Source of the DNA: Thermoproteus sp.
Lineage (GTDB): Archaea > Thermoproteota > Thermoprotei > Thermoproteales > Thermoproteaceae
Length of the DNA stretch: 40,333 bases
NCBI GenBank assembly: GCA_049976425.1
Contig: JBMFIG010000013.1
Location: forward strand, 1 to 40,333
Direction of reading: 5' to 3'
Shown here in pieces: positions 11,733-37,022 of this stretch (the first letter of the stretch is position 1; every line of letters begins with the position of its first letter). Made by a program: the position numbers and the translations under genes. The notes under the pieces are model-generated. The model was not told where the DNA came from, ran no database searches, and was given only the letters and a program-made list of their open reading frames with translations.

Positions 11733-11822
11733 CTGAAATATGGGGGTGGGCAAAAAGTTTCATTCAACTCTACTCCGATTATCTTAAATATAAGAGACTA
11801 TATATGGAAATTGGGGGATGAT

Positions 11823-14800
11823 ATGGCTGTTAAGGTCATCAAGGCGTCTGGCGCCAAGGAGGACTTCTCGGAGGAGAAGCTACGCATATCTCTTGTTAGG
11901 GCGGCCGCCGACGTTGGCGTAAGCGTGGACGGGGAGGTGAAGATAAGGCCGACTTCCGATATAACCAGCGCTGAGCTGTCAGACTTAGTCGAGCTCGAGC
12001 TACTCCGCAAGGCCATAGACAAGCCAGAGCTAGCCGAGGCGGCCAAGTCGCACCTGTTGGGCAGGATATATAAGGAGGCCTTGGGCAAGGACTTTCTGAA
12101 AGATAAGTCCAAGTACGGCGAGAGGGTCTTCGCCTCGGTGGAGAGGCTGGTCGGCGCTGGTCTCCTCAAACAAGAGGCTCTCTCGGCCCTACGTTGGGTC
12201 GAGCTGAAGCCCGAGTTCGACCGCTCTCTGAGCTACAACGCGTTGAGGCTGTTCACTAATGGCAACTACGCCCTGCGCGGCCCCGACTTCAAGATAGCGG
12301 AGACGCCGGCCGCCGCGGCGGCGAGGGTAGCCACGGCGGTCGCCGGGAGCCCCGAGGCGGCCAGGCTGTACTACGACGCCATAACCTCGCTGAGGATAGT
12401 CCCGGCCTCGCCTTTCTGGTTCAACGCGTGGACCAAGAAGGAGATGTTCGCCTCCTGCTTCACTCTGGAGGTGGAGGACTGCCTCTCCTCCCTCACCCAT
12501 CCGGGGAGGTACTGCATATACGACGCCTTGGCCTACTCGGGCATAATACAGCAGTTGGGCGGCGGCGTCGGCTACGACTTCTCCCTACTCCGCCCCGAGG
12601 GCGACGTGGTGAGGGGGAGCGTAGGGGTTGCGTCGGGCCCCATCAGCTTCATGAAGCTCTTCGACGCCAACGTAGACGTCATAAAGCAAGGCGGCAAGCG
12701 CCGCGGGGCGCAGATGGGCACCCTCCACGTCTGGCACCCGGATATCCGCAAGTTCATCAAGGCCAAGACTGGCGAGTTGAAGGACGCGCATCTGCAGAAC
12801 TTCAACATATCGGTCTTCGTGGACGACACCTTCATGGAGAAGGCGCTCGGCGTGGATCAGAACTCGAAATACCCGTTGATAAACCCCCGCGTCTTCTACG
12901 ACAAGACGGGGGAGAAGGCCGTGGAGCACGTGGACGTATACAAGGAGGCCGAGATCCCCAGAGATGCCATATGGGGCGAGGTAGACGCCCGCCAGCTCTT
13001 CCGCGAGATATCGAACAGCGCTTGGGATTCCGGCGATCCGGGCCTTATATTTAAGGCCAATCTAAACGCCTCTAACCCGCTCTTGGGGGAAGAGATAGAG
13101 GTCGCTGGATATCGCTTTACATATATATGGAGATCTGTCAACCCATGTGTCACGGGCGATACGAAAGTGCTAACTAAGGAGGGCTATCTCAACATATCGG
13201 AAGTATACAGAAGGGCGAGGGAGAGGGGAGAGCTCGCGTTGATTACCGAGGGCGTTGAGGAGGACGGAGATCCCAGAGGGTTCGCCGCAGAGGTCGTGGT
13301 TCCTCATGTAGTGGTCACCGCGGATGGGAGAACCCAAGTGAAGTATGATGTTGTTAAGTCCGGCGTGATAAAAGTGGGGACGAAAAATGTCTACAGAGTT
13401 GTGACTAAGGAGGGCTTCGAGATAAAGGCTACGCCGGATCACCGTCTGCTAGTGGTGAAGGGAAGCAGAGACAGACCGAGCGGGTTTGAGTGGAGGCGCG
13501 TGGATCAGTTGAGGCCAGGGGATCTGTTAGTCATAGCGCCTGTGGATATCGAGGGCGAGGACATAGGCGAGGACACAATGCCCTTGTCTGTTGCCTATCT
13601 GCTGGGCCGCGTAGCGGGAGACGGCTCTATAATCGTGGACGGGTACAACAGGGCTCACATATTCATATACTTTGGCAAGGACGAGCTGGACGACGCGGTA
13701 AGCCTAGTCGAGATGTTGAAGGCGGAATACGGCTCCGACCTCAGCTACAGCCTTAGTGAGACGAAGAGCGAAATTAAGCTAGAGATATCTGGCACGTTAG
13801 GTAGGGCGATCGCCTCGCTGGTTCCGGAGCTGATACATGCCAAGAGTAGCGAAAGGAGGGTGCCGGAGATTATCTTTAGAAGCAAGCCGAAGATAATTAA
13901 GGCGTTCCTCAGAGGACTGTTCGACGCAGATGGCACAATTGACGCCGACAGCGCTATACGGCTTACTTCCCAGTCTCTGCAGTTGCTCAGAGACGTGCAA
14001 CAGCTATTGTTGCTGTTCGGGATATACTCAGTTATCTACACGCGCAAGCGTTCCGGGGGTGGGTTCACTTACGTTACCAAGAGCGGCGAGGTGAGGGAGT
14101 ACAGAGGCTCTAGCCAATACTACGAGTTGGTGATCAGGAACGAGTCGAGGTGCAGGTTCGTGGAGAAGATAGGGCTGACGCCGCGCAAGCTGGCGAAGGT
14201 CAGCACGAAGAAGTGCAAGCGGGAGAAGCCGTTCGCTACAGTGGAGAGGGTAGAGTATATAGGGAGGGAGGTGGTGTACGACTTCGGAGTTCCCCAACAC
14301 CACCGCTACATTGCCGAGGGAATTGTAAGCCACAACTGCGCCGAGACTGTTCAAAATCCGTTCGAAGTATGTAATCTTACCCATATAAATCTTGTAAAGT
14401 TTGTAAAGGATAACTGTGCCGGTAGTTCGTTCGAGGAGAAGCTGGCATGTATAGATTGGGAGGGCTTGGCCCAAGCCGCGAGGCTGGGGACGCGCTTCCT
14501 CGACAATGCGATAGACAGAAGCCGCACAGGTATAAAGATAGTGGACGAGATGAACTCTGCCACCAGGAAGAACGGGCTGGGCATCATGGGCTTCGCGGAG
14601 CTCCTCATAAAGCTCGGGATACCCTACGCGTCTTGGGAAGCCGTGGAGCTGATAAACCGCATCATGGGCTGGATATACGTCAACGCGCTGGACGCCTCGG
14701 CCGACCTCGCTAGGGAGAAAGGGCCGTTTAAGTATTTCGAGAAGTCGATATATGCCAGAGGCGAGTTGCCCGCTCTGAAGTTCCAGGACTTCGTCTGGTC

Positions 14801-15566
14801 GCGGTGGGAGCGGATCAAACACGTCTATCCGCCGGAGCTGAGGGATGCAGGCGATCGCCTCAAGGAGATCACGGAGAGGACTAGGCAGTGGCTTCTGCCG
14901 TATATAGAGAGGCTCAAGGAAAAGGTCAAGGGCGGCGTGAGGAACTCCGTGGTGCTCTCCATAGCTCCGACCGGCAGGACCAGCATATTGGCGGGCACCA
15001 CCAGCGGGATAGAGCCCGTGTTCGCGTTGGCCTTTCTCCGCAACGTCACGGTGGGCACGTTGGTGGAGTACTACGAGCCGGGGATAGAGTATCTCAAGGC
15101 GAGGGGCCTCTGGACGCCTGCGGTGAGGAAGGCGGTGGAGGAGACCGGCATGTTGAGGGACGCCCCCGTGCCCGAGGACGTCAAACACTTGCTGGCGACC
15201 GCCATGGAGATAGGCTGGCTCTGGCACGTCCTCATGCAGGCGAGCGCCCAGCAGTGGGTGGACCAAGGCATCTCCAAGACGATAAACATGCCCGCCAACG
15301 CGCCGAGCGACGACGTGTATTGGGCCTTCGCGTTGGCCTGGGCGCTGGGGGTCAAAGGCATAACCGTGTATAGGGATAAGTCGAAGTCAGTGCAGGTGAT
15401 ATACACGGGCTTGAAGCAGGAGATAAAGAAGAAGTTGGCCGAGGCCAAGATAACGGTGAGGCCTATATCGCTCGAGACGTCTATAGACGAGGCGGCTAAC
15501 GAGGTCAAGCTGAAGGCCTTGGAGGAGGGCAAGGATCCGTACTGCAAGACAGGCGAGTGTAGCTAA
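11823..15566 (+). CDS. nrdJ: Class II (adenosylcobalamin-dependent) ribonucleotide reductase, intein-containing
   Basis: N-terminal ATP-cone-like region, PASPFWFNA, ASCF, GGGVGYDFS, QGGKRRGAQM, GDPG, NP-[intein]-CAE, CNL, GLGIMG, SIAPTG, ISKTINMP, KGITVYRD, C-terminal Cys pair. ATG at 11823 follows a TATA box. Confidence 0.95.
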   Translation: MAVKVIKASGAKEDFSEEKLRISLVRAAADVGVSVDGEVKIRPTSDITSAELSDLVELELLRKAIDKPELAEAAKSHLLGRIYKEALGKDFLKDKSKYGERVFASVERLVGAGLLKQEALSALRWVELKPEFDRSLSYNALRLFTNGNYALRGPDFKIAETPAAAAARVATAVAGSPEAARLYYDAITSLRIVPASPFWFNAWTKKEMFASCFTLEVEDCLSSLTHPGRYCIYDALAYSGIIQQLGGGVGYDFSLLRPEGDVVRGSVGVASGPISFMKLFDANVDVIKQGGKRRGAQMGTLHVWHPDIRKFIKAKTGELKDAHLQNFNISVFVDDTFMEKALGVDQNSKYPLINPRVFYDKTGEKAVEHVDVYKEAEIPRDAIWGEVDARQLFREISNSAWDSGDPGLIFKANLNASNPLLGEEIEVAGYRFTYIWRSVNPCVTGDTKVLTKEGYLNISEVYRRARERGELALITEGVEEDGDPRGFAAEVVVPHVVVTADGRTQVKYDVVKSGVIKVGTKNVYRVVTKEGFEIKATPDHRLLVVKGSRDRPSGFEWRRVDQLRPGDLLVIAPVDIEGEDIGEDTMPLSVAYLLGRVAGDGSIIVDGYNRAHIFIYFGKDELDDAVSLVEMLKAEYGSDLSYSLSETKSEIKLEISGTLGRAIASLVPELIHAKSSERRVPEIIFRSKPKIIKAFLRGLFDADGTIDADSAIRLTSQSLQLLRDVQQLLLLFGIYSVIYTRKRSGGGFTYVTKSGEVREYRGSSQYYELVIRNESRCRFVEKIGLTPRKLAKVSTKKCKREKPFATVERVEYIGREVVYDFGVPQHHRYIAEGIVSHNCAETVQNPFEVCNLTHINLVKFVKDNCAGSSFEEKLACIDWEGLAQAARLGTRFLDNAIDRSRTGIKIVDEMNSATRKNGLGIMGFAELLIKLGIPYASWEAVELINRIMGWIYVNALDASADLAREKGPFKYFEKSIYARGELPALKFQDFVWSRWERIKHVYPPELRDAGDRLKEITERTRQWLLPYIERLKEKVKGGVRNSVVLSIAPTGRTSILAGTTSGIEPVFALAFLRNVTVGTLVEYYEPGIEYLKARGLWTPAVRKAVEETGMLRDAPVPEDVKHLLATAMEIGWLWHVLMQASAQQWVDQGISKTINMPANAPSDDVYWAFALAWALGVKGITVYRDKSKSVQVIYTGLKQEIKKKLAEAKITVRPISLETSIDEAANEVKLKALEEGKDPYCKTGECS
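13146..14336 (+). mobile_element. Intein (397 aa) with LAGLIDADG homing endonuclease, inserted before the RNR active-site Cys
   Basis: Starts CVTGDTKVL, has block B ATPDHRLL, LAGLIDADG motifs YLLGRVAGDGS and FLRGLFDADG, block F VYDFGV, and ends SHN followed by extein Cys (NP|CAE). Confidence 0.96.
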
Positions 15567-25934: not shown

Positions 25935-26645
25935 GAATTCCTTCGGGACGGCGTAGGATCTGTCCCCATACAGCACGACCCTTCCGGCCAGCCAGAGCAA
26001 CGTATCTATATGGAGCGGCGGCACGCCGCTTCTCTCCGCTATCTCGCTCCAGATTCTCTGGATCTCTTCCCGTCTTCTCAAAGCCTCCTCCGGGCCAGCC
26101 TTTATTAGGCCGAGGCACGCAGTTAGCCTAGCTACTCTGTAGTCCACGGGGATAGGTATATCGTTGGGCAGAGCCCTATCAACGCCTCTGCAACACATAT
26201 AGACATAGTTCAACATCTTCACCGTAAATACGACCGTCTTGGCCTCGCCGTCAGATCCCAGCAGGCGGGCTAGATCTCTCCACGTCTTGGAGAGATCGAT
26301 TATATCGGGGTCGTAGTTACATACCTTTCTTATTCTCTTAATTCTAATATCTCTACCTATTGCTAAATAGGGACTTGTCTTTATATATTGTATGAATTCT
26401 TCGCAGATATCGTTTCCTTTTCTTCTGGAGAAGAAATCTGCGAAATAATGCCAGTGCTCCTCTCCTTTGCCTGTGAGCCTATAGCTGATCAGGGCATTCA
26501 TCATGACGAGCCGCGCCGTATCTGGCTCGCCCCTATTGCCGCAGAGACGGCATACTGACTTATACTGGGGATCCTCTTTCTCCAGATCGAGGATAGCCTT
26601 AAGCCCTATTTTCCTCAACAGCAGCGCTATCTCTTCTGCGGCCAT
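25902..26645 (-). CDS. Archaeal 8-oxoguanine N-glycosylase/DNA lyase (AGOG)
   Basis: DPQY, NALISYRLTGKGEEHW, KTVVFTVKM, IPIPVDYRV, PPLHIDTLLW. Confidence 0.93.
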   Translation of the reverse strand: MAAEEIALLLRKIGLKAILDLEKEDPQYKSVCRLCGNRGEPDTARLVMMNALISYRLTGKGEEHWHYFADFFSRRKGNDICEEFIQYIKTSPYLAIGRDIRIKRIRKVCNYDPDIIDLSKTWRDLARLLGSDGEAKTVVFTVKMLNYVYMCCRGVDRALPNDIPIPVDYRVARLTACLGLIKAGPEEALRRREEIQRIWSEIAERSGVPPLHIDTLLWLAGRVVLYGDRSYAVPKEFLDFIKRFCNR

Positions 26646-27648
26646 ATTGTACCGGGTTCTTCACTCCGCATCCCAGGTTGGTAGGGCAGAGGCCCCAGGA
26701 GTTCATGGTCTCGCAACTGGGCACCGAGTACTCCTTCCTGCCGCCGGCCTGCCCCGCTATATGTTGCACCTGGTACCGCGTGATCTTCTCGTTGAAGTCG
26801 GGGACCGATCTAAAGAGGTCGACTATGCGGTCGACGTCCCACCCTCGTTTTAACAAATAGGTGGTTATCGCGAAACGAGCCACGTGCGGGAGGTTCTCGC
26901 CGCGTCTCAACGCTTCAAGAATAGCGGCCATACAAGGCGGCGTCTCGCCCGTGGGCGAGGCCTTGACGGCGATGGGCCTATAGGATCTCAACTTTTCTAG
27001 GAGGGCAGATATCTTATCCACCTTGCTTAGGACGCCCGCTATATACCCGACGTCCTCCCTGGAGGCGAGCCTCAGTATTTTCGCCTCGTACGCCTCTTCC
27101 AAGATCCTCTCGAAATCGTCTATACGTAGAAGGACCCAGCCCCTCACCACGGGCCTATTTATCATAGACCAATCGGGATCTTGTGGCGCATATCTCAGGT
27201 AGTAGATCCATTTAATCGCTAGGGGGTGAGTTACGGCGAGTACAGAGCCCTTGATTATGTTATGTGTGAGGGCGGTCTCCACGCCCAGATCGGCGGCTAT
27301 TTCGGCTTTACATTCAAACGATTGGATGCCCGGCGTGTTCCTGATCCTGAAAGTGAATATCTTGCTTTGGGAGTCCGCGAATCTCCTCAACACGTACGAG
27401 TTTGTCGAGGCCGCGACGATGTAGACTGCCAGTCTAGCCGCGGCTGCCTCAAGTTCTTGGTTCGAGGAGCACGGAGCGGGCTTACCCTTGCGAAGAGAGT
27501 TCTCGACTATTTGTATAGCTCTCTCCGTAATAGCCTCAGACGCCAAGGCGTTCTCGAGCGTGAGTCCGCGAGAGTATAAATACTCCCCCGACTTGTCAAG
27601 GTAGGGGAAGAGACACGCGAGCTCCTGCGATGTGGCGTGACAAGACAC
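26599..27648 (-). CDS. priL: DNA primase large subunit
   Basis: LFPYL, PPCM, GENLPHVARF, PDFNEKITRYQVQHIAG, YSVPSC, GLCP..C..KNP (Fe-S Cys). Confidence 0.95.
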   Translation of the reverse strand: MSCHATSQELACLFPYLDKSGEYLYSRGLTLENALASEAITERAIQIVENSLRKGKPAPCSSNQELEAAAARLAVYIVAASTNSYVLRRFADSQSKIFTFRIRNTPGIQSFECKAEIAADLGVETALTHNIIKGSVLAVTHPLAIKWIYYLRYAPQDPDWSMINRPVVRGWVLLRIDDFERILEEAYEAKILRLASREDVGYIAGVLSKVDKISALLEKLRSYRPIAVKASPTGETPPCMAAILEALRRGENLPHVARFAITTYLLKRGWDVDRIVDLFRSVPDFNEKITRYQVQHIAGQAGGRKEYSVPSCETMNSWGLCPTNLGCGVKNPVQYGRRRDSAAVEENRA

Positions 27649-27745: not shown

Positions 27746-29059
27746 GTGAGGACTTACTCCATGGAGCCAGGCGATATCTTCAGGGTTGAGGGCCCTGCGA
27801 AGATAGATGTATTGGAAGGCGCCATATACGCGGTCGGGGCGCTCTACACGAGCGGGAGTCACTTCACAGTATTGAGGGCCAGAAGACTTGCATTTAAGGC
27901 TGTTGACAAGGCCAAGATAAGCGTCGTGTTGGGCCCCAACGCGGTCTTGGAGCGCGCAAGGCCCGAGGAGGAGGTTCTCGACGAGTGGGAATCTGCGGCG
28001 TCTAGCGTGGATCTAAACGGCGTCACTGTGGTTATTGGCGCCATCGACGTGGGTAAGTCGACGATGACTGCTGTGTTGGCCAATAAGGCCCTCTCGCGCG
28101 GCCTCAGAGTAGCCGTAATCGATGCCGACGTCGGCCAGAACGACATAGGCCCTCCAACTACCATATCTGCCAGTAGAATCATCAAGCCCATCACGAGTCT
28201 GAGGCAGATCCAAGCCGAGAAGTCTGTGTTCATGCAGTCGACGAGCCTCGAGAGGATATGGCCGCGGGCGGTGGAGGCCATAGGCAAGTTAGTGCTCTAC
28301 GCGCGCCAGGCGTGGTCGGCCGACGCTGTTATAGTAAACACAGACGGCTGGATCTCCGGCGAGGAGGCCGAGGAGTACAAGAAAACCCTATTGGCGAAGA
28401 TCAAACCCAATAACGTAGTCGCCATCAAGATCGGCAACGAGCTCGACGGAATATTGGCGAATTTCTCGAACGTGGTGTTCGTGAGGCCCCCGCCTGCCGT
28501 TGGGACTAGGACAAAGGAGGATAGGAAGATACATAGAGAGATGAGCTACGCGCGGTTTATATTCCCCGTGAGGGAGGTGTCGGTCGATTTGAACAAAACG
28601 CCCTTATGTAACATAGGCCTCTTCAAGGGGCTCGACCTAGAGGGCGAGTTCAAGGCCATGCTGTCGCGTGCCATCAATGCGAAGATTACCTACGCCAACC
28701 AATTAGGCTCGGCATTGTACGTTATAGCGGATCAGTGGATCACTAGGAAACTCAACTCGTTTAAGGTCTTCGGCTTCCCCGAAGGTTTTGAGAAAGGGTT
28801 GCTTGTCGGCGTTGAGGATCGCGACGGGTTCCTGATAGGGTTAGGAGTTCTTAAGAAGATATATTACGATAGAAAGAAGGCGGTGGTGTACATGTCGTCG
28901 AGGACCGAGAAGGCTTTACAGAGAGCCGCATGTATCCGCGTCGGGTTCATACGGCTTAACGACAACTTCGAGGAGGCCGAAAGAGTGGTTCAGCTGTTGA
29001 GATATGATTTATATACATATGCTCAGAACGGCACGATGAGGGGAGCGGGCAGCGCCTGA
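27746..29059 (+). CDS. Clp1/Grc3-family polynucleotide 5'-OH kinase
   Basis: GAIDVGKST, DADVGQNDIGPP, NTDGW, R..HRE lid motif. Confidence 0.92.
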   Translation: MRTYSMEPGDIFRVEGPAKIDVLEGAIYAVGALYTSGSHFTVLRARRLAFKAVDKAKISVVLGPNAVLERARPEEEVLDEWESAASSVDLNGVTVVIGAIDVGKSTMTAVLANKALSRGLRVAVIDADVGQNDIGPPTTISASRIIKPITSLRQIQAEKSVFMQSTSLERIWPRAVEAIGKLVLYARQAWSADAVIVNTDGWISGEEAEEYKKTLLAKIKPNNVVAIKIGNELDGILANFSNVVFVRPPPAVGTRTKEDRKIHREMSYARFIFPVREVSVDLNKTPLCNIGLFKGLDLEGEFKAMLSRAINAKITYANQLGSALYVIADQWITRKLNSFKVFGFPEGFEKGLLVGVEDRDGFLIGLGVLKKIYYDRKKAVVYMSSRTEKALQRAACIRVGFIRLNDNFEEAERVVQLLRYDLYTYAQNGTMRGAGSA

Positions 29060-29060
29060 T

Positions 29061-29876
29061 CTATGATGTCACCATCTCAAGCCGAGAGCTCTCCTCTCCG
29101 CCTCTCTCCTTAAGGAAGAGATCCAGAGTCCCAAGGAACGTGAAGTCTGTCAGATAAACTTCGGCGAGTTCCGGCCTCAAGTCCACATATCTTAGGATAG
29201 TCCTATCGTCGGTGGTCAGTTGCGGCAGATTGGCTATGTCGAAGCCCGTTATTAGGGGGTGCGAGGCTGGAAGAATAACGATTCTGATATCTTCATCCAA
29301 ATCATATTGTTTATTATACATCTTCTCCATTAAAGCATCTTTATTCTGTTTTATCTTAATTATAGCATGTTCTCTAGTGACGTACCCTATCTCGTCCACT
29401 ATTGAGACTGAGGGGTGCGTGTGGCCCATGACCAAGACCTCGGCTCTTGCCAAGTCCTCGGGACGGGGCTTGGCGTGTCCATGTAATAGTAAGGTAGGCT
29501 TGACGCCGTCGAGCAGTACCCCTCTGCTGTCGGCTAAGTAGACGCCCTCTATGCCTTGCGAGATCTCGTCGAGCAAGCCGTCGTGGTTTCCCGGAATTAA
29601 TATAACCCTCTCGTATAGCTTCGCGAGATCCTTTAGGAACTGTCTGACCTCAGCGGCGGTCTCCCGCGGGGTAGGCAGCTCGTGTTTCACGTCGCCGAGT
29701 ATCGCCAGAGTGTTGGCCCCCGCCTCCTCGCCCCACTGTTTCAGGTTATTGAGAAGCCTGCTCGTCTGGCTAACGGCCCGTATTCCTCTGAGCCTAAGCT
29801 CGGCTTCGTAGCCGACGTGGGTATCGGCTACAAGCAATATGTTATCGCCATCGGCCTTGAAGACAATGCCCCTCAC
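29061..29876 (-). CDS. Metallophosphoesterase (ICC-like)
   Basis: ADTHVG, LGDVKH, PGNHDG, HGH, GHTHP. Confidence 0.88.
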   Translation of the reverse strand: MRGIVFKADGDNILLVADTHVGYEAELRLRGIRAVSQTSRLLNNLKQWGEEAGANTLAILGDVKHELPTPRETAAEVRQFLKDLAKLYERVILIPGNHDGLLDEISQGIEGVYLADSRGVLLDGVKPTLLLHGHAKPRPEDLARAEVLVMGHTHPSVSIVDEIGYVTREHAIIKIKQNKDALMEKMYNKQYDLDEDIRIVILPASHPLITGFDIANLPQLTTDDRTILRYVDLRPELAEVYLTDFTFLGTLDLFLKERGGEESSRLEMVTS

Positions 29877-29891
29877 ACGTTACTCTGGTTC

Positions 29892-30434
29892 TTAACTATT
29901 TAATTTTCTTGCTATATCCACAGCTACCTTGACCATCTTGGCGACTCCCACGCTCCTTAACCTGATAGGATCAACGCCATTAGCCCTATATATACGCAAT
30001 TGTTCATCGAAAGGAATTAAATAGATTTTACTATATTTACTATATAATACTATATATCTTAATTTAGGTCTTCCAATTATCATGTTAATCAATATACCTA
30101 GTTTCCGCCCTCGGGCGAGTTTCAAGAAGGTTCTGGCAGACTCCAAGGTGTGCGGGTCCTCGTCGGCCACGAATACAATATTTCTACAGGAAAGATAGAG
30201 GGAGAGCAGATCTCTATCGCTTAAGTGAAAAGCAGGGAAATCGTAGATCCTTATATCTCCATCTACTATGTCCGTCTCGATATCTATATCGGTTTTTATT
30301 TTGTATGGAATTTTAGAAAGATTAATTATAACAATATTTTTTTGATAGATATATTTCAGAACATGTGCCATAATTATGCTGAAAGTGGTCTTGCCGGTTC
30401 CGCCTCTAGAACCCGATGTGATGCAGATATCCAC
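29892..30434 (-). CDS. Minimal MinD/ParA-like ATPase
   Basis: Deviant Walker A SRGGTGKTT, switch II DFPA, ILINM, IPFDEQL. Confidence 0.8.
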   Translation of the reverse strand: MDICITSGSRGGTGKTTFSIIMAHVLKYIYQKNIVIINLSKIPYKIKTDIDIETDIVDGDIRIYDFPAFHLSDRDLLSLYLSCRNIVFVADEDPHTLESARTFLKLARGRKLGILINMIIGRPKLRYIVLYSKYSKIYLIPFDEQLRIYRANGVDPIRLRSVGVAKMVKVAVDIARKLNS

Positions 30435-30485
30435 AAGCTGTTTGGATCGTTAAAAGCTACGTTGCTTTTTAGGCTGTCAAAAACC

Positions 30486-30629
30486 GTGGATAGCCTAGTC
30501 GAATACCTCTACATATCAGGAGAAATTTCGTTAAAGGAATTTATAGATCTTTTATATAACTATAATTTACTTAAAAGAATTATAGTAACTATGAAAATAT
30601 ATTATAGAAAGAAAATAAATTATTTATGA
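30486..30629 (+). CDS. 47-aa microprotein with SHOCT-like motif
   Basis: GTG start gives MDSLVEYLYISGEISLKEFIDLLYNYNLLKRIIVTMKIYYRKKINYL. Divergent from the MinD-like gene. Confidence 0.5.
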   Translation: MDSLVEYLYISGEISLKEFIDLLYNYNLLKRIIVTMKIYYRKKINYL

Positions 30630-31087
30630 CAAAATATTTCGAAGTATTTTTTATCAGTCAGCTCCATTCTGTAGCCGTCCTCTCCATCACTGTAATAATT
30701 CTTAAGCGTTTCGACTATCTGAAAACCGGCCTTTCTGTATAAATCTATAGCTTCTTTATTGCTTATTCGAACTTCTAAATAGATTTTCTTAACAGTATTT
30801 GTTTTCAAAAGTTTTAAAGCGGTACAGAGAAGGGTCGACCCTATGCCTCTGCGTCTGGACTCCCTCCTCACGGCGATAGAGATTATATGGGCTGCCGGCC
30901 CCTCTATACAGGTAATAATATATCCGATAACTTTATTATTTTCAATATATATATATGAATTATCATAACAAAATGAGCAGAGGAATTTAAGTAAATCGAT
31001 ACTATATACATCTTCTTTCTTAAACGAGTCGAGCTCCACCTCATATACCTCGTTGAGCCTTTCGGCAGAACAGCGCTCCAAGGGCAC
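30620..31087 (-). CDS. rimI: N-terminal acetyltransferase (RimI/Ard1, GNAT)
   Basis: HIISIAV, RRRGIGS, YLEVRISN, LYRKAGF, YYSDGEDG. Confidence 0.92.
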   Translation of the reverse strand: MPLERCSAERLNEVYEVELDSFKKEDVYSIDLLKFLCSFCYDNSYIYIENNKVIGYIITCIEGPAAHIISIAVRRESRRRGIGSTLLCTALKLLKTNTVKKIYLEVRISNKEAIDLYRKAGFQIVETLKNYYSDGEDGYRMELTDKKYFEIFCHK

Positions 31088-31171
31088 TCTAGCCGATGGA
31101 TGCGGTGTTTATAGGCGTTGCGTAGCGCTTTTTGTCTATAGCTGATATATTGGCGTTAACGACGAATTGGC

Positions 31172-34012
31172 GTGCTTAATATTACAGACTCGCCGTTCAA
31201 CCCATCAGGGGTCACCCATCTACATAGGCTACACCGCGCGCTTGGGTTCGATAAGGAGCTAGCCCAGATCGCCGATCTATTCGACCTAGTCGCAAAAACC
31301 AGAAGCAACGTGCTTGCAGTAGTCGTCGCGCCCTACGGCTACGGCAAGAGCGAGTTCCTAGATGAAGTGCAGAGGGAGGCGGATTCGAGAGGGCTCAGGA
31401 CTATACGGGTGGCTCTGACGCACACGTTCAAGGAGGACATACTGAGAAGTTTACAGGAGAAGCGTCAGGGCGAGCCGTTGTTAGTGCTGATCGATGAGGC
31501 CGACGAGCTGTCGAGAATAGCAGCTATGCACAGGCTAGGCGCTCTGTCCAACGACGAGTTCAGGCAGGCGGTGATGGATCTGGCATCCATAGTGCGGGCG
31601 TTGCTCGAGCCGAGGAACTACCCCCAAGTGCTCAAGAACCCCGAGAACTACGATAGGGTGTTGGTGATCGCCGCATTAACGCCGCAGGTCTACTACACTA
31701 TACTCAAAAACGTAGTGCCGGACGTCTTTGACCTAACCACCGGCCGGGTGTATAAGGAGATAGTCCTCGACACGCGATACCCGTTTTGGCTCTTCGTCGA
31801 AATGGTGGCGTCGAGGCTGGACGCGTATATCAGAGCCAAAAGGCCGGACAAGCTTTGGCCCTTCACCCTAGGCGAACTGGCCGCTCTATACAATATAGCC
31901 GTAAAGAAGGGCGAGGTCAGTCCGAGATATCTGTTGAAATTGGCGGCCCGCCTATTCGAGCTGAAGAATAAGGGGAAAGGGCTTGCCGAGCTCGCCGAAG
32001 AGGAAGGAATATATATTCAGAAAAAGGAACTTGTTGAATATATATTATCTGGTCTTCCTGCTATTAATATAGAAGAGAAATATATAGATATCTTTAAGAA
32101 AAAATATCTATATAGAATACCGTTTAGCGATAAGGAGGCGGTGGCCGCCGTCAATAGGTTCCTCAAGCTAAGAGGCGGGGAGATCAAGCCTACCGACGAG
32201 AGATCCGCCTCATACGAGCCGAATCTATACTACACGATAATGGAAAACGGCGAGTTGATGATATATTTCGTCCACGACGAGGTGCTGGAAGAACTGAGAG
32301 AATATCTGCTAGGCGAGGCCTATGTCGTGAGCGACGACGTAATTTCCGCGGCCGACAAGAGGGAGGATATGTATAGGATAAGTAAGGAGTTGCTCGCCAA
32401 GTTGCAGGACCCCCAGCAGTTCCTTAATGAAATAGAAAAAATACTTGATCTAAATGGAATAAAAATAAAAATATGTTGTGGAAAAGCTATATGGTATAAT
32501 AATTTAGGATTTAGAGAATTAATATTGTTAATATATCTAGATAAAGAAAACGATATAAATAACATTAGAGGCTTTATGAGTAAGATAATAGCAGAAGGAG
32601 CACTAGAGGAATATCCAATAGACTATATAATAGCATATATATTTTCAAATGTTTTATTAACCGATGAATTGGAGGCTTCTATCTCTCAATTGCTTAAGAT
32701 TAGTTGGAAAAATCTATATCTAGATAGCGCCGGTAAATATGTTTATTTAAATATATATGGTGCAGATAAATTAGATAGGCTGAAAACTGATATTGTCAAG
32801 TTCCAAATCGATAGAATACTGGGCAGAGATGCCGGGCCTCTGGAGATGCTGGAAAATCTCAAGCTGTATAGAGAGAAGGCGCGGGAGAACGTGCTTAAGT
32901 ACACGCTGGCGTTGCGGAGAGGTAAGGAAAGGAAGGAGCTTTCCTTGCTGAAAGTCGCCGAGCAGCTTATCTCGGGCGAAATACCTGAAGGAATGACCGC
33001 ATACCATAGAGTCGTCGACGTGCTCATCAGAGGTATAGAAAACGACATGCACGAAAAAGAGCTCAAGACGTTTATAGCCAGGCTCTTCCCGGTAAACCTC
33101 TGGAGAGATCTACGCGAGGACGACTTGGTGACTCTTATGATCTACACCGGCTATCTAATTCCCCGAGACGATAGGATCTATGTTAAATTTAATATGGAAG
33201 ACGCACGTAGATATCTAGAGGCTTTATCGAAAGAATTATATACCTATTCTGAGGTCACAGTCTCTTTCAAGAGCAAGATTTTCGGGGAAATAAAGCTCTC
33301 CAAAAAGCTCGACATCGAGAAGATACCCCTCGAGTTTAGAGACGCCAAGGAATATGCGGCGTTAGTCGTTCGCCTCAAGAAGGCGTTGCTAGCGGCACAA
33401 CAGGAGGCGGTCGCCGTGAGAGGCGAGTTGGAGCAAGAGCTTAGGGCCAAGAAAGACCTTGTAGGGATTTTGGAGAAGCTCGCCGAAAGGATGCCGCAGA
33501 GGATCAAGTACATGGCTCTCGACGAAAAGGTAGCTGAGAGGGAGTCCACCATCCTCAAGGCCGTGGACGAGATCATGGAGATCTGGAAGGGCCTGCATCC
33601 ATTGGCGCGTGAGCTCGGCAAGGCTATCTCCGTCGAAGCGGATCTCGGAATTCTTCTGAATCTGCCGGAGCCCTGGGTCGAGGACTATCTGGCCACGCTA
33701 AGGCTCTACTCGGTTAAGCTCAGGGAGGAGTACGAGGCGTACAGAAAGGATTCGGAACGCCGGAGGAGAGTTGCCGAATGGGTTAAGGTCCGCCTAGGCG
33801 CGTCAGACGGCGTGGACGAGGTCTTGAAGAAGAAATCGGAGGAGCTCCAGGTACCCTACCGGTTGCTGTACGCCATAGCGTCGCGGGGTCCCGGCGCCGA
33901 ACTGGACCCGGATGTGCTGGCCTCAGAGGCCTCTATGGAGGCCTGGCTGGTGTCCAAGTACCTGGACGTGTTGGCAGAGAAGGGGCTAGTCGCGAAGAAG
34001 TATGTCTCCTAG
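31172..34012 (+). CDS. Large AAA+-like P-loop ATPase with coiled coil and C-terminal winged helix
   Basis: Walker A APYGYGKS, Walker B LLVLIDEADE, lid-like WPF...SPRYLL, heptad-rich C-terminal third, terminal LASEASMEAWLVSKYLDVLAEKGLV (wHTH pattern). Confidence 0.85.
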   Translation: MLNITDSPFNPSGVTHLHRLHRALGFDKELAQIADLFDLVAKTRSNVLAVVVAPYGYGKSEFLDEVQREADSRGLRTIRVALTHTFKEDILRSLQEKRQGEPLLVLIDEADELSRIAAMHRLGALSNDEFRQAVMDLASIVRALLEPRNYPQVLKNPENYDRVLVIAALTPQVYYTILKNVVPDVFDLTTGRVYKEIVLDTRYPFWLFVEMVASRLDAYIRAKRPDKLWPFTLGELAALYNIAVKKGEVSPRYLLKLAARLFELKNKGKGLAELAEEEGIYIQKKELVEYILSGLPAINIEEKYIDIFKKKYLYRIPFSDKEAVAAVNRFLKLRGGEIKPTDERSASYEPNLYYTIMENGELMIYFVHDEVLEELREYLLGEAYVVSDDVISAADKREDMYRISKELLAKLQDPQQFLNEIEKILDLNGIKIKICCGKAIWYNNLGFRELILLIYLDKENDINNIRGFMSKIIAEGALEEYPIDYIIAYIFSNVLLTDELEASISQLLKISWKNLYLDSAGKYVYLNIYGADKLDRLKTDIVKFQIDRILGRDAGPLEMLENLKLYREKARENVLKYTLALRRGKERKELSLLKVAEQLISGEIPEGMTAYHRVVDVLIRGIENDMHEKELKTFIARLFPVNLWRDLREDDLVTLMIYTGYLIPRDDRIYVKFNMEDARRYLEALSKELYTYSEVTVSFKSKIFGEIKLSKKLDIEKIPLEFRDAKEYAALVVRLKKALLAAQQEAVAVRGELEQELRAKKDLVGILEKLAERMPQRIKYMALDEKVAERESTILKAVDEIMEIWKGLHPLARELGKAISVEADLGILLNLPEPWVEDYLATLRLYSVKLREEYEAYRKDSERRRRVAEWVKVRLGASDGVDEVLKKKSEELQVPYRLLYAIASRGPGAELDPDVLASEASMEAWLVSKYLDVLAEKGLVAKKYVS

Positions 34013-34502
34013 AGTAGTGGTCATAAAGGAGGGGGAGTTGAGGCTCGATGGCGATGTGGTGATAGACGCCCGGCCGCCCTACGATTTCTACGACGTAGTG
34101 ATACTGGAGGGGAAAGAGCTACGCTCTGTAGTGGCCGTGGGCGAGGCCAAGGGAGACGCGGTGGTTGGATGGGGCAAATACACCGGCAAGCCGGTCGCGG
34201 TCTTCCTCAAAGGCGTGTTGTACCTAAGGGCGGTTCCGTTGACGCTGTACCAAGAAATGGGCTATCTAGAACGCGAGTTCTCTACAAGAGAGGAGGTCGA
34301 CGTAAAGAAACTGGTGGAGAGGCTAAAGAAGATAGTGTTGGAGGAAAGACGGAAGTACAAGAAATCGTCTTCGTTGCTCGCCTTGCAGAAATTCGTGGAC
34401 GGCGATGCGCCGTTGCCGAGCTATCTAGCAGACGTCCTCGGCCCTATTGGCAAGGACGTTGCGGCTAAGGTGTTGGAAGCGCTCTACAGCGAAATATATT
34501 GA
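34002..34502 (+). CDS. Hypothetical protein (beta-rich N-terminus, helical C-terminus)
   Basis: Overlaps the ATPase stop by 11 nt and the next start (TGATG). Confidence 0.8.
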   Translation: MSPRVVVIKEGELRLDGDVVIDARPPYDFYDVVILEGKELRSVVAVGEAKGDAVVGWGKYTGKPVAVFLKGVLYLRAVPLTLYQEMGYLEREFSTREEVDVKKLVERLKKIVLEERRKYKKSSSLLALQKFVDGDAPLPSYLADVLGPIGKDVAAKVLEALYSEIY

Positions 34503-35284
34503 TGAGGCAGCTCATATCCGAGATACTGCGCCTTGCCGAGATGGAGATACCTAAATATAGAGATAAATTGATAGAACTAGCGAGAGATATAGATGAGTAT
34601 AAAAAGGAAGCGGTGGAGAGACCCCGATATGTAGATACGCCGGACTATATCGCGATAGACTCCGGATATGCCGTGATTCAGTATAGATATTTAAATATAG
34701 CTATAATAGTTGTAGTTATAATTGATAAATATATAAATAGTGAAACTATATTATTTAGTTTTAAAAGAAATGAGGATATAGATTTAAATAGTTATATAAG
34801 AAAGCAGGAACTTGCGCGTGCTGAAAAACACAGCGGATATGTTCTGTCCGACGGTCCGTTGTCGCCCTATATGAAAGAGCCTAGAGGTTTCATCATCGGC
34901 GTCTCGAAAGATCCGGTAGCTCCTAGGTATTGGAAAGGCATAGGCGGCCGTGTAGGCGAATGGCTTAGGGAGATATCCGGCTACGTATCAGAGCTGTACG
35001 GAGCCGAGCTTCTGCTTCGGGGCGAGCCGCCGGGCTCTATGCTGAAGCCCGTAAAGCTTGGCAAATATCTTGTTACATATATAAAGGGTGACTCTGTGTT
35101 TTATGTCGAATTTCCTGAGTATATACCCAAGGATATTGTCGCATCATTTTTTAGGTATGGATATCCAATCAAGCTTAGAATTGCGCATAGATATGCAAAG
35201 ATCACTCGGGAGTATTTGAGGACCGTTAGGACAATAGCGCCTAGGCTTTTAGATATATCGACAAAATATAGGGAGTATCTATAA
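34502..35284 (+). CDS. nurA: NurA-family nuclease
   Basis: IAIDSG, RKQE, SDGPL, GVSKD, GYPIKLRIAHRYAKIT. All NurA signature blocks present in order. Confidence 0.85.
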   Translation: MRQLISEILRLAEMEIPKYRDKLIELARDIDEYKKEAVERPRYVDTPDYIAIDSGYAVIQYRYLNIAIIVVVIIDKYINSETILFSFKRNEDIDLNSYIRKQELARAEKHSGYVLSDGPLSPYMKEPRGFIIGVSKDPVAPRYWKGIGGRVGEWLREISGYVSELYGAELLLRGEPPGSMLKPVKLGKYLVTYIKGDSVFYVEFPEYIPKDIVASFFRYGYPIKLRIAHRYAKITREYLRTVRTIAPRLLDISTKYREYL

Positions 35285-35416
35285 GCCTTTATAAATATAT
35301 ATTAAATTAGCTATGGCTAGGTTGACACAATCATCTAGGTCCAGTTCGTGTTTTTTACAGATCTCCTTGAGCGCCTTATATTCGGCGGGCTTAAGCGAGA
35401 TCACGACACGTTCCAT
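35279..35416 (-). CDS. 45-aa ribbon-helix-helix (CopG/MetJ-like) protein, below the ORF-track cutoff
   Basis: MERVVISLKPAEYKALKEICKKHELDLDDCVNLAIANLIYIYKGL: alternating beta strand then two helices. TATA-like TTTTAATATATA upstream. Confidence 0.72.
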   Translation of the reverse strand: MERVVISLKPAEYKALKEICKKHELDLDDCVNLAIANLIYIYKGL

Positions 35417-35466
35417 ACATCTACTGGTGTATATATTAAAAGAGGATTTGTTAAAAATGTATACGT

Positions 35467-36066
35467 CTACTTCAATAAGCTCGTTATCTGCTGGAGCTTG
35501 TTCTTGACCTCCTCAAGTTCTCTGCGTAACCTGTCGTTCTCGGCCCTAAGCCTCTCCACCTCCCTAGACAGCTCCTCCTTCTCTCTCCTCAACGCCTCAC
35601 AGTCGGGCGCCGCCTGTCCGCACCTATCGCTTCTGATCCAGTAGACAAGTTCCGTCTTGTCCTTGTTCCACGTTATCTCGCCGGTGTCGGGATCTACGAG
35701 GAGCTCCGTCGATATCATAAAGATGTCGCCGCGCTCCAGCTTATGTTTGGGCACAGCCTCCTCGAAGAACCACTTCTTCAATCCGTCGAAGAGCTCTCTG
35801 GAGGTCTCTCTAAATTTTTCCGAGTCCCTGATCCGCGCGAAGATATTCTCGCCATCGGGCCCGAACTGCTCCCTGAGCGAGCCTGCAATTGCTCCGAAGA
35901 GTAGCTTGAAGAACTCGGGCCGGCCGCCGGGGCCGTACCGTCCGAAGAGTCTGCCTGCCGAGGTCTTTCCGGTGCTCCATCTAATCAACAGAAGCTTCTT
36001 GCCCTCGCGGGTGACGAGCTCTGAACGGACTTCTCCCCTTTCTTCCTCTCTCACCTCCTCGCCCAT
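35467..36066 (-). CDS. ThermoDBP, Thermoproteales single-stranded DNA-binding protein with C-terminal leucine zipper
   Basis: IRWSTGKTSAGRLFGRYGPGGRPEFFKLLFGA...GDIFMISTEL...YWIRSDR matches the T. tenax ThermoDBP sequence as I recall it. Heptad C-terminal tail. Confidence 0.9.
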   Translation of the reverse strand: MGEEVREEERGEVRSELVTREGKKLLLIRWSTGKTSAGRLFGRYGPGGRPEFFKLLFGAIAGSLREQFGPDGENIFARIRDSEKFRETSRELFDGLKKWFFEEAVPKHKLERGDIFMISTELLVDPDTGEITWNKDKTELVYWIRSDRCGQAAPDCEALRREKEELSREVERLRAENDRLRRELEEVKNKLQQITSLLK

Positions 36067-36110: not shown

Positions 36111-37022
36111 GTGGTGTATTATAATATATACAGCGGCCCCCTCGCCAAGGGATGCGATATGTGCCTAGTGGGCGCTAAGGCGGTTATATTCATCACAGGT
36201 CTGTGCAGATATAGGTGCTTCTATTGTCCGGTGGATAGGGAGAGGTTCGGCAAGGACGTCGTGTACGTCAACGACGTGAGAGTAGATACGACGGACGACG
36301 TGGTACGCGAAGTCGCCGCGTCGGGCGCTACGGGAGCCGCCATAACTGGCGGAGATCCTCTCGAGGTCCCCGACAGAGTGATGGAGATCGCGTCGGCGCT
36401 GAAACGCGCGTTTGGAAAAGAGTTCCACATACATCTGTACACCAGGCCAACTAGCTTGGACAACAAGACGACGAATGCCCTAATAAACTCCGGCGTGGAC
36501 GAGGTGAGGCTACACTTCTTGAGCTACGGCGAGGTGGCGGGGAGGTTGCACTACATCGCGGCGCTTAAGTACGCCGGGCTTTCCGTAGGCGTCGAGGTCC
36601 CCGCGATACCCGGCCTTGAGGCGAGCATGTCGGCGGCGATAAACGCGTTGGCCGCACGCGGATTGGTCGACTTCGTGAACATCAACGAGCTCGACGTGTC
36701 CGACAGCAACATAGATATGTTGAGGCGTCTAGGCTATAGGGTGGGCGACGGGTCGGCGTACGGTAGCTTTGAGGCGGCCAAGCGACTAATGGGGCTTGTC
36801 AGGGGAGTCCCGGTCAATCTGTGTAGGAGCAAGACGAAGGATCTGTACCAGATAGGGGCGAGGGTCTTCAGAGAGGCCATGTTCTCCGCGGCATCCTCAG
36901 AGCGCGTGCAGGACGACGGAACTATAGAGTATACGGAAGACGGCGTACATCCCGGCTATAGGCTCGCCAGGAGCGTTAAGGTGAAGATCAAACTTGGGGG
37001 GAAGTATCTGGAGATCGCGTAG
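36111..37022 (+). CDS. Radical SAM protein (COG2108-like)
   Basis: KGC..C, FITGLCRYRCFYCP, ITGGDP, HIHLYT, DEVRLH, NINEL. Confidence 0.88.
   Translation: MVYYNIYSGPLAKGCDMCLVGAKAVIFITGLCRYRCFYCPVDRERFGKDVVYVNDVRVDTTDDVVREVAASGATGAAITGGDPLEVPDRVMEIASALKRAFGKEFHIHLYTRPTSLDNKTTNALINSGVDEVRLHFLSYGEVAGRLHYIAALKYAGLSVGVEVPAIPGLEASMSAAINALAARGLVDFVNINELDVSDSNIDMLRRLGYRVGDGSAYGSFEAAKRLMGLVRGVPVNLCRSKTKDLYQIGARVFREAMFSAASSERVQDDGTIEYTEDGVHPGYRLARSVKVKIKLGGKYLEIA

Follow-up and report, generated by a model that had tools for sequence, protein, structure and literature searches.

A conserved ATPase-NurA gene trio of the Thermoproteales as the possible core of a DNA-targeting nuclease machine related to Orc/Cdc6-HerA/FtsK systems

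Comparative genomics has described 'capture' systems in which Orc/CDC6 ATPases, with an inactive restriction endonuclease (REase) domain between the AAA+ core and a C-terminal winged helix-turn-helix (wHTH), are coupled to HerA/FtsK and nucleases, and has proposed that the Orc/Cdc6 part localizes the apparatus on DNA (PMC10853773, NAR 2024). Archaeal NurA is a component of the canonical HerA-NurA end-resection complex, which acts with Mre11-Rad50 (PMC3300031, PMC3326311, PMC5715905, PMC12977600), and the BREX-related system 'BRC' combines PglZ, a DUF6079 Orc-like ATPase, STAND, DUF4007, HerA/FtsK, GNAT and TGT (PMC12839542). Here we analysed three adjacent genes, hereafter the trio, in a 40,333-nucleotide (nt) stretch of a Thermoproteus genome (GenBank assembly GCA_049976425.1, contig JBMFIG010000013.1, positions 1-40,333), the whole of which is referred to as the window. 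The trio encodes an Orc/Cdc6-like ATPase of 946 amino acids (aa), a 166-aa protein designated X and a minimal NurA-like nuclease of 261 aa. In our view the odds are about even that the trio supplies the operon core of a nuclease machine that has five proteins and targets DNA, and that this machine is a variant of the capture systems with NurA as effector, which became fixed in the order Thermoproteales.

The trio resembles the capture systems in being an operon with a nuclease and a fast-evolving small protein, and its two distant counterparts (loci L044 and L047) also lie in a defence-island-like context. Capture systems use an active effector of REase fold, whereas the effector here is a NurA, of RNase H/PIWI-like fold; they have HerA/FtsK in the neighbourhood, whereas here it is absent from the trio loci of the nine genera examined and present in L044 and L047. 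They are mobile and sporadic, unlike the trio, which is fixed and vertically inherited in the order (58/62 genomes) and sporadic only in its distant form (1/301). Their inactive-REase insert is here only suggested, by sub-threshold matches. An earlier reading of the window made from its letters alone (the sequence-only reading) had proposed an undescribed complex. That description is not supported for the general kind, since the combination of Orc/CDC6, HerA/FtsK and a nuclease is the subject of PMC10853773; the main text of that paper (supplements outside scope) contains no mention of NurA, Thermoprote* or Pyrobaculum. BREX and BRC likewise share the Orc/Cdc6-like ATPase, with weak BrxC_BrxD similarity in 5/20 homologues, and a GNAT gene, found beside the trio in one family, and the distant loci share HerA and TGT-like genes with BRC. 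However, all BrxC_BrxD scores were below cut-off, no PglZ, methyltransferase or DUF4007 occurred among the scanned open reading frames (ORFs), and NurA is not among the BRC components in the available text of PMC12839542.

Architecture of the three encoded proteins

The three genes are co-oriented, with overlapping junctions. The ATG of X at 34002 precedes the TAG of the ATPase, which ends at 34012, giving an 11-nt overlap. X and the NurA-like gene meet at TTGATG, where the stop codon TGA of X occupies 34500-34502 and the NurA-like gene could start either at TTG 34499 (4-nt overlap with X) or at ATG 34502 (1-nt overlap, TGATG). The latter is favoured because orthologue N-termini read M-(M)RQL. 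The gene order, the junctions and all the motifs quoted in the sequence-only reading were confirmed in the sequence. The genes and the regions of the ATPase are as follows.

31172-34012, + strand: Orc/Cdc6-like AAA+ ATPase (P0001), 946 aa; ORF with GTG start
34002-34502, + strand: protein X (P0002), 166 aa; ORF, fold without known match
34499-35284, + strand: minimal NurA-like nuclease (P0003), 261 aa; ORF with TTG start, ATG 34502 the likely start
31172-32050, + strand: conserved PFxPSGV segment, AAA+ core and helical lid of the ATPase, approximately residues 1-293; sub-cut-off Pfam matches
32054-33331, + strand: middle region of the ATPase, residues 295-720; small alpha/beta domain, alpha-beta-beta-beta-alpha-beta module, helical/winged-helix-like part
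33344-33796, + strand: long helical/coiled-coil segment of the ATPase, residues 725-875; DSSP helices 725-773, 785-814 and 836-875 in the AlphaFold2 (AF2) model
33812-34009, + strand: C-terminal wHTH of the ATPase, residues 881-946; Pfam MarR_2 at 896-942, E 0.003

The translation of P0001 contains a Walker A motif (APYGYGKS) and a Walker B motif (IDEADE). Across 20 ATPase homologues G56, G58, K59, D108, E109, T170, R192 and R252 were invariant, of which T170, R192 and R252 would be the sensor and arginine-finger residues. Since both Walker motifs and further polar residues are invariant, the ATPase is predicted to be active. The AF2 model built on these homologues (predicted local distance difference score, pLDDT, 86.4) consisted of an N-terminal alpha/beta domain with a helical lid, the long helices at 725-875 and a small helical domain at the terminus. 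Its best Foldseek matches in the PDB were archaeal Orc1/Cdc6 structures (1w5t_A, E 2.2e-6; 1fnn_A; 2qby_A, TMt 0.48), followed by generic AAA+ proteins. TM-scores normalized to the query were 0.20-0.21 for the Orc1/Cdc6 matches, low values explained by the ~650 further ATPase residues without a counterpart in Orc1/Cdc6. As in archaeal Orc1/Cdc6 (1w5t, 1fnn, 2qby), an AAA+ core with lid is N-terminal and a winged helix C-terminal; the operon partners, a nuclease and unknown proteins, set the ATPase apart in addition to its extra residues. On the predicted model it is thus an Orc/Cdc6-type AAA+ ATPase with intact Walker motifs, a helical lid and a C-terminal winged helix. Members of the Orc/Cdc6 clade are known as DNA-binding switches or loaders and not as translocases.

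For the N-terminal part, Pfam gave only sub-cut-off matches, to AAA_16 (13/20 members), nSTAND_NTPase5 (10/20), AAA_22 (7/20) and BrxC_BrxD (5/20). For BrxC_BrxD, P0001 scored 12.5 bits with a cut-off of 22.2 and the best family member reached 8e-5. The only match of the trio in PADLOC-DB 2.0 was a partial one of mad8 to ATPase residues 34-160 (6.4e-5). Of the wHTH families, MarR_2 was matched in 7/20 members and TrmB in 6/20 (best 1.6e-6; positions in members other than P0001 not tabulated). The sequence-only reading had described an AAA+ core with lid, an uncharacterised middle, a coiled coil and a terminal winged helix, which the AF2 model and the MarR_2 match bear out. A profile search of the PDB with the whole ATPase returned mostly coiled-coil noise from designed and viral coiled coils. 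A match to an ESCRT-III winged helix in the same search (2xvc, 59 aa, E 0.0038) was weak and was given no weight.

The middle region was modelled separately (pLDDT 88.4). No PDB structure matched it in Foldseek at E<=1e-3 (best TMq 0.23), a PDB sequence-profile search gave no significant match, and the best Protein Atlas scores for X and for residues 295-720 (0.84 and 0.81; one Mrr-type fragment) were at chance level. Slice residues 120-198 form an alpha-beta-beta-beta-alpha-beta module of REase-like topology. Sub-threshold Foldseek leads for the region were FokI (probability 0.72), EcoO109I (0.57), LmuA, Mus81-Eme1 and RuvB/RFC/ORC, and together with the strand order these suggest that the module is REase-like; no conserved D...ExK was found in it among the 20 homologues. 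The invariant residues of the middle region are R448, D484, W512, P640, W644 and D651. With its helical part counted, the ATPase bears two winged-helix-like modules.

Protein X had no match in Pfam, NCBIfam or PADLOC, nothing significant among PDB sequence profiles and no usable match in the Protein Atlas. The structure and profile comparisons proposed with the sequence-only reading gave Orc/Cdc6 for the AAA+ part, and no assignment for residues 295-720 or for X. Residues E115, R116, S122 and Y166 of X are invariant, and X adjoins the ATPase, by coordinates, in 53 of the 54 genomes that have it.

The third protein carries the motifs AIDSG, DGPL, SKD and GYPIKLRIAH. The window copy scored 17.0 bits against Pfam NurA (PF09376; E 0.0043), below the gathering cut-off of 21 bits, and was not listed in a PF09376 scan of the whole genome. 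Nevertheless, its identity as NurA, claimed from the motifs, was upheld by its orthologues: all 17 aligned sequences matched Pfam NurA at E<=0.1 (best 2e-16), and D54, S55, G56, E104, D118, G119, K137, E204, Y222 and P223 were invariant in them. NCBI names orthologues 'DNA double-strand break repair nuclease NurA'. At the residue after GYP..L..A (H231 here), genera g1 and g2 have H, whereas the remaining genera and the NurA of Heimdall have D. Judged by the order and spacing of the motifs, D54, E104, D118 and H231 correspond to the metal-binding residues Asp51, Glu105, Asp126 and His411 of P. furiosus NurA (Pf NurA; PMC3300031), on which mapping the protein keeps the RNase H-type D-E-D-(H/D) set. 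It is therefore best classed as a real but divergent NurA. The domain map of Pf NurA runs to residue 441, with an M domain at 189-286 (PMC3300031); the 261-aa protein, judged by length and not by structure, has no room for this domain and probably lacks it.

Three canonical NurA matches were found in the same genome, on contigs C41, C4 and C15. The alignment of the NurA-like family to them reached a hhalign probability of 93.9 over only 100 columns, and the NurA-like profile recovered 0/3 of them at E<=1e-3, as expected of a separate NurA subfamily, which we take it to be on these profile comparisons. The sequence-only reading had called the third gene a paralogue, which was borne out, and had asked whether the genome has a separate herA-linked nurA; one lies on contig C41, where HerA-like (532 aa), Cas_APE2256 (251 aa) and NurA (328 aa) genes follow each other (L041 509-4437, minus strand). 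Cas_APE2256 counts among the CARF-type families, so that C41 may hold an accessory module of a type III CRISPR system. A PDB profile search with the NurA-like protein found no NurA, and neither did one with a canonical NurA of the same genome, making the search uninformative. One genome of the same genus (G110, C13 46443-47221) has an interrupted NurA-like gene, in which two TAA codons lie inside a match split in two; either gene decay or faulty sequencing may account for this.

Conservation in the order and the candidate partners U and HerA

The presence of the trio genes, of a further protein of ~235 aa designated U and of a short form of HerA was counted among 62 genomes of the order, 37 of them of high quality.

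ATPase: 58/62 genomes
X: 54/62 genomes; 36/37 high-quality
NurA-like: 55/62 genomes; 36/37 high-quality
U: 61/62 genomes; 37/37 high-quality
Short HerA (E<=1e-40): 56/62 genomes; 35/37 high-quality

The four ATPase-negative genomes were 54-88% complete, and each of the others had one ATPase copy. Read from coordinates, the trio was contiguous in 52 of the 54 genomes with X. The exceptions were G100, where X and the NurA-like gene are found on the opposite strand, 3.8 kb upstream, and G061, whose sole NurA-like match is weak and on a different contig. The closest genera holding the trio are Thermoproteus and its sister Pyrobaculum, in which 19/20 loci had the same three genes and overlapping junctions. 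The trio also occurred in five more genera (g3, g4, g6, g8 and g9; g7 too) at 21-30% identity, with flanks that differ between genera. Such recurrence of gene order and overlaps, next to flanks that change, goes far beyond what chance would give, and the trio is presumably a conserved co-translated unit across the order. This answers, for Thermoproteus and Pyrobaculum, the synteny test proposed with the sequence-only reading.

Outside the order the full-length ATPase was rare. None of 58 genomes from other families of the class had it. In a sample of the phylum, it was found in 35/35 genomes of the order (two split across contig ends) and in none of 366 others, eight of which had a match covering at most 171 of 1021 profile positions. 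The ATPase tree required eight label changes for nine genera, the minimum possible, and families grouped together. The tree thus follows taxonomy, which indicates vertical inheritance of the ATPase, and by these comparisons the operon is a hallmark that the order has inherited vertically in one copy per genome, and not a patchy island. At the same time the ATPase evolves fast, with 43% identity between sister genera compared with ~60% for the short HerA and 57-62% for a neighbouring GNAT gene.

HMMER was run exhaustively over 1.84 billion representatives with ATPase residues 1-720 and returned 35 proteins at E<=1e-3. The first 30 scored 7e-12 or better with matches spread along the profile, and were family members and fragments. 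Four of the remainder (P0086-P0088 and P0090) matched the N-terminal part of the profile only, and P0089 only positions 240-297. P0086-P0088 proved to be distant relatives, the N-terminal stretch aligning to P0086 at a hhalign probability of 99.4, and led to two loci with full-length homologues, L044 and L047; a first metagenome scan with P0087 found nothing. The ATPase of the order and a distant full-length homologue aligned at a hhalign probability of 99.75 over 981 columns, spanning both proteins. Context was visible for these two full-length distant homologues only, as L045 and L048 end at contig ends. The gene orders were as follows.

L044, Candidatus Heimdallarchaeum aukensis: U 252 aa - ATPase 1224 aa - 248 aa - NurA 374 aa - HerA 533 aa
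L047, metagenome contig: U 251 aa - ATPase 1227 aa - 310 aa - NurA 395 aa - HerA 528 aa - TGT-like - PCNA-like - QueT - DUF2400

The NurA of L044 matched Pfam at 1.5e-11 and aligned to the NurA-like subfamily of the order at a hhalign probability of 98.8 over 257 columns, and that of L047 matched Pfam at 1.7e-18. The HerA of L044 has HAS-barrel, DUF87 and HerA_C domains, and that of L047 is likewise of the HAS-barrel/DUF87 type. As in the canonical HerA-NurA systems, HerA is adjacent to NurA at both loci. Both also contain a GmrSD restriction gene and a TGT-like gene, and L044 a DDE transposase fragment. The distant ATPase occurred in 1/301 genomes of the Heimdall phylum and is sporadic there. 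The distant form behaves as an accessory, island-borne system, and as L044 and L047 share gene content, their independence may not be assured. The TGT-like genes lie beside the distant clusters (L047 15393-19648, L044 4908-6140), with a PCNA/Hus1-like gene, QueT and DUF2400 also in L047, and the distant loci may combine the nuclease module with an island for 7-deazaguanine modification of DNA.

The protein upstream of the distant ATPases identified U as a candidate partner. The U proteins of Heimdall and of L047 matched at E 6e-7, and the Heimdall U matched a gene overlapping the ATPase start in G059 at E 3e-9. U adjoins the ATPase, upstream, only in family f2 and is elsewhere in the genome in the other families; in the genome analysed here it is at C1:167960-168664. 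Nothing significant was found for U among PDB sequence profiles.

For HerA, the genome has two principal forms, a long one on contig C11 and a stand-alone short one (C12:2153-3766). The long HerA is followed by a 378-aa protein and a Rad50-like gene on C11, and adjoins a long NurA in the other family. Neighbours of the short HerA were not conserved even within the genus, and no HerA lay beside the trio in the loci of the nine genera examined. As the long HerA is already paired with the long NurA or near Rad50-like, the short HerA and the NurA-like protein are left as two orphans.

Both are absent from some genomes of genus g7. In G070 and G074, X and the NurA-like gene have been deleted in place, as the ATPase is followed by an ABC-ATPase gene and the same ABC-ATPase (74-76% identical) comes after the NurA-like gene in G071. 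The short HerA was not found in G068, G069, G070 and G074 but was found in G071, G072 and G073, and G071 and G072 have kept X, the NurA-like gene and the short HerA. A DUF87 family search of G074 gave only the long HerA type among strong matches. The ATPases within g7 are 35% identical (L036 of G074 and L061 of G070 compared with L059 of G071), in contrast to the adjacent ABC-ATPase, and the G074 ATPase is on the longest branch of the tree (2.38, compared with a median of 0.28). The co-loss, the orphan state of both genes and the HerA of the distant clusters point to the short HerA as a trans-encoded partner, so that the HerA partner in the order is most likely the stand-alone short HerA.

These results modify two proposals of the sequence-only reading. 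It had the NurA paralogue coupled to 'a different motor': the coupling to the ATPase is conserved, but by Foldseek the ATPase folds as the Orc/Cdc6 switch type. It had also inferred a module with no HerA: none lies beside the trio in the genomes of the order examined, but HerA comes after NurA in L044 and L047 and the short HerA is co-lost in g7.

Genomic surroundings of the trio

Two genes upstream of the trio bear on its possible partners.

30620-31087, - strand: GNAT acetyltransferase, 155 aa; Pfam Acetyltransf_1 2.7e-18; divergent, 84 nt upstream of the ATPase
29061-29876, - strand: calcineurin-like phosphoesterase, 271 aa; 1.3 kb upstream of the trio

The GNAT gene was in the same divergent position in 19/20 close loci (L012-L031, of which L012 is the window copy and L028 lacks it) and in L037, so that each of the three genera in the family has it, with the 84-nt spacer. 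Its identity was 57-97% in the two closest genera and 40% in the third. No GNAT gene was at this position in the seven loci from the other two families (L032-L036, L038 and L040). It is possibly associated with the trio, or it may be a mere housekeeping acetyltransferase.

The sequence-only reading had noted the absence of HerA, Mre11 and Rad50 from the window. This stands for HerA and Rad50: no HerA (DUF87) match on the contig of the window (C13) was over cut-off, the sole match being a 16-bit P-loop at 10124-10216, and Rad50-type AAA_23 had no match there. For Mre11 it is less clear, as Mre11 is a member of the calcineurin-like phosphoesterase superfamily and the 271-aa gene above belongs to it. 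Canonical NurA is tied to Mre11-Rad50, whereas the NurA-like protein is tied to the Orc-like ATPase, X and U.

Housekeeping genes lie around the trio, among them NFACT, TruD, AdoHcy hydrolase, ribonucleotide reductase (RNR), SerRS and PriL. A Clp1-type P-loop polynucleotide-kinase-like gene (27746-29059, + strand) and the DNA primase large subunit (26599-27648, - strand) lie a few kb upstream, and no linkage of the trio to either was conserved between genera. The RNR large subunit (11811-15566, + strand; 1251 aa) contains an intein bearing a LAGLIDADG homing-endonuclease domain. A radical-SAM gene 0.8 kb downstream of the trio (36111-37022) was considered as a 7-deazaguanine link for the window, which is not supported, as the gene is outside any neighbourhood conserved between genera. 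A link to Ted/Ced DNA import, suggested by the Rad50 and HerA-like genes near Ted loci (PMC9905601), was also set aside, no connection to the trio having been seen.

The trio forms a low-GC patch (window 30001-36000), with a GC content of 0.482 compared with 0.601 for the genome, which places it in the 1st percentile among 4.1-kb windows (n = 1573). At third codon positions the GC content was 0.41 in the NurA-like gene, compared with 0.61 and 0.69 in the remaining genes. A recent horizontal transfer was rejected as the sole cause, because the trio and its flanks have equal GC content in other genera and the gene tree shows vertical descent.

Proposed mechanism and competing readings

In the proposed machine, the Orc-like ATPase would act as an ATP-dependent DNA-recognition and assembly switch and not as a translocating motor, and would work with the ~235-aa partner U. 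X would connect the ATPase with the minimal NurA, present as a dimer. A HerA hexamer, in the order the short HerA, would feed DNA to NurA, and the target DNA would then be degraded 5'->3'. In contrast to the mobile capture systems, the module would have been fixed in the order's ancestor and passed on vertically from there. We slightly favour action against foreign DNA over a domesticated chromosomal role.

Several observations weigh against this proposal. The HerA tree is unresolved at its base and the HerAs of the distant clusters did not group with the short HerA; by BLAST they preferred the short HerA (2e-69) to the long HerA (2e-27), which may only reflect the long branch of the latter. 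The co-loss in g7 may be a single event among kin, in genomes 69-94% complete, and G114 (91% complete) has the trio and no short-HerA match. X of the order and the proteins in the same position in L044 (248 aa) and L047 (310 aa) had no detectable mutual similarity, and the REase-like insert relies on strand order and sub-threshold Foldseek matches. The ATPase and U have, or had, a function of their own, because both persist without the nuclease and the short HerA. Against defence in particular are the presence of the small genes and U in 36-37 of the 37 high-quality genomes, strict vertical descent, the housekeeping neighbours, a PADLOC result limited to partial mad8 and the absence of any match in plasmid, phage and viral-contig collections.

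The strongest competitor, possible but improbable on balance, is that domestication in the ancestor left the same machine with chromosomal work in place of any anti-invader role, for example in end resection, in fork or termination processing or in resolving chromosomes. A single-copy ATPase in 58/62 genomes with a tree following taxonomy, small genes in 36/37 high-quality genomes each, a housekeeping neighbourhood including the primase large subunit and absence from plasmid, phage and viral collections all fit such a role, as does the dispersal of U and the short HerA to other loci, which is usual for core genes. It fits less well with the GmrSD, TGT-like and transposase genes beside the sporadic distant homologues (1/301), with the loss of X and the NurA-like gene tolerated in g7, or with how quickly the ATPase evolves (43% identity from one sister genus to the other; within g7, 35% compared with 76% for the flank).

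We regard it as unlikely that the NurA paralogue works without HerA and that the giant ATPase is an alternative motor feeding DNA to it. HerA lies beside the trio in no genome of the order examined, ATPase-X-NurA coupling is tight and conserved, and since the NurA-like protein is far shorter than Pf NurA (261 aa, compared with a map to 441), its partner surfaces may differ. Yet the ATPase is of a switch or loader clade, although ring translocation has been proposed for the related SspC (PMC10853773); HerA directly follows NurA in both distant clusters, and the short HerA is missing where X and the NurA-like gene are missing.

A third reading makes the ATPase mainly a DNA-binding regulator or chromatin organizer with the nuclease as a dispensable accessory, for which we see little probability. 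It would explain the intact ATPase and U of G070 and G074 after loss of X and the NurA-like gene, and suits the two winged helices, the coiled coil and the MarR_2 and TrmB matches in the family, but the long G074 branch (2.38 compared with 0.28) fits a relaxed or changed constraint and not an unchanged main function, and the overlapping junctions have been kept in 52/54 genomes. That the three genes are neighbours without shared function is barely credible: a complex prediction for X and the NurA-like protein lent no support to an interaction but returned no answer (score 0.00) and so bears neither way, whereas the trio keeps its order and overlaps at identities as low as 21-30% next to changing flanks, and two distant loci repeat the succession of ATPase, small gene and NurA.

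The proposed nuclease machine and its domestication could also be successive stages. An anti-invader capture system of U, ATPase, X, NurA and HerA would have become a core chromosome-maintenance machine, and the ATPase and U would have gained a nuclease-independent function that persisted after the loss of NurA, X and the short HerA; we think this rather improbable. The nuclease-independent function could be the marking or organizing of specific chromosomal sites. To our knowledge, the order is without FtsZ and ESCRT-type division and without a canonical single-stranded DNA-binding protein.

If the proposed machine exists, it would be the first case found of a NurA wired to an Orc/Cdc6-type ATPase, and a rare example of a defence-type multi-gene system turned into a fixed, vertical signature of a whole archaeal order. 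It would provide testable partners for U, the ATPase, X and the short HerA, four uncharacterised proteins that occur throughout the order, and would sort the several NurA and HerA proteins of these genomes into three sets: a long pair linked to Rad50, a pair linked to CARF and the present module. The g7 genomes without the nuclease half would then be a natural experiment separating the function of the ATPase from that of the nuclease.

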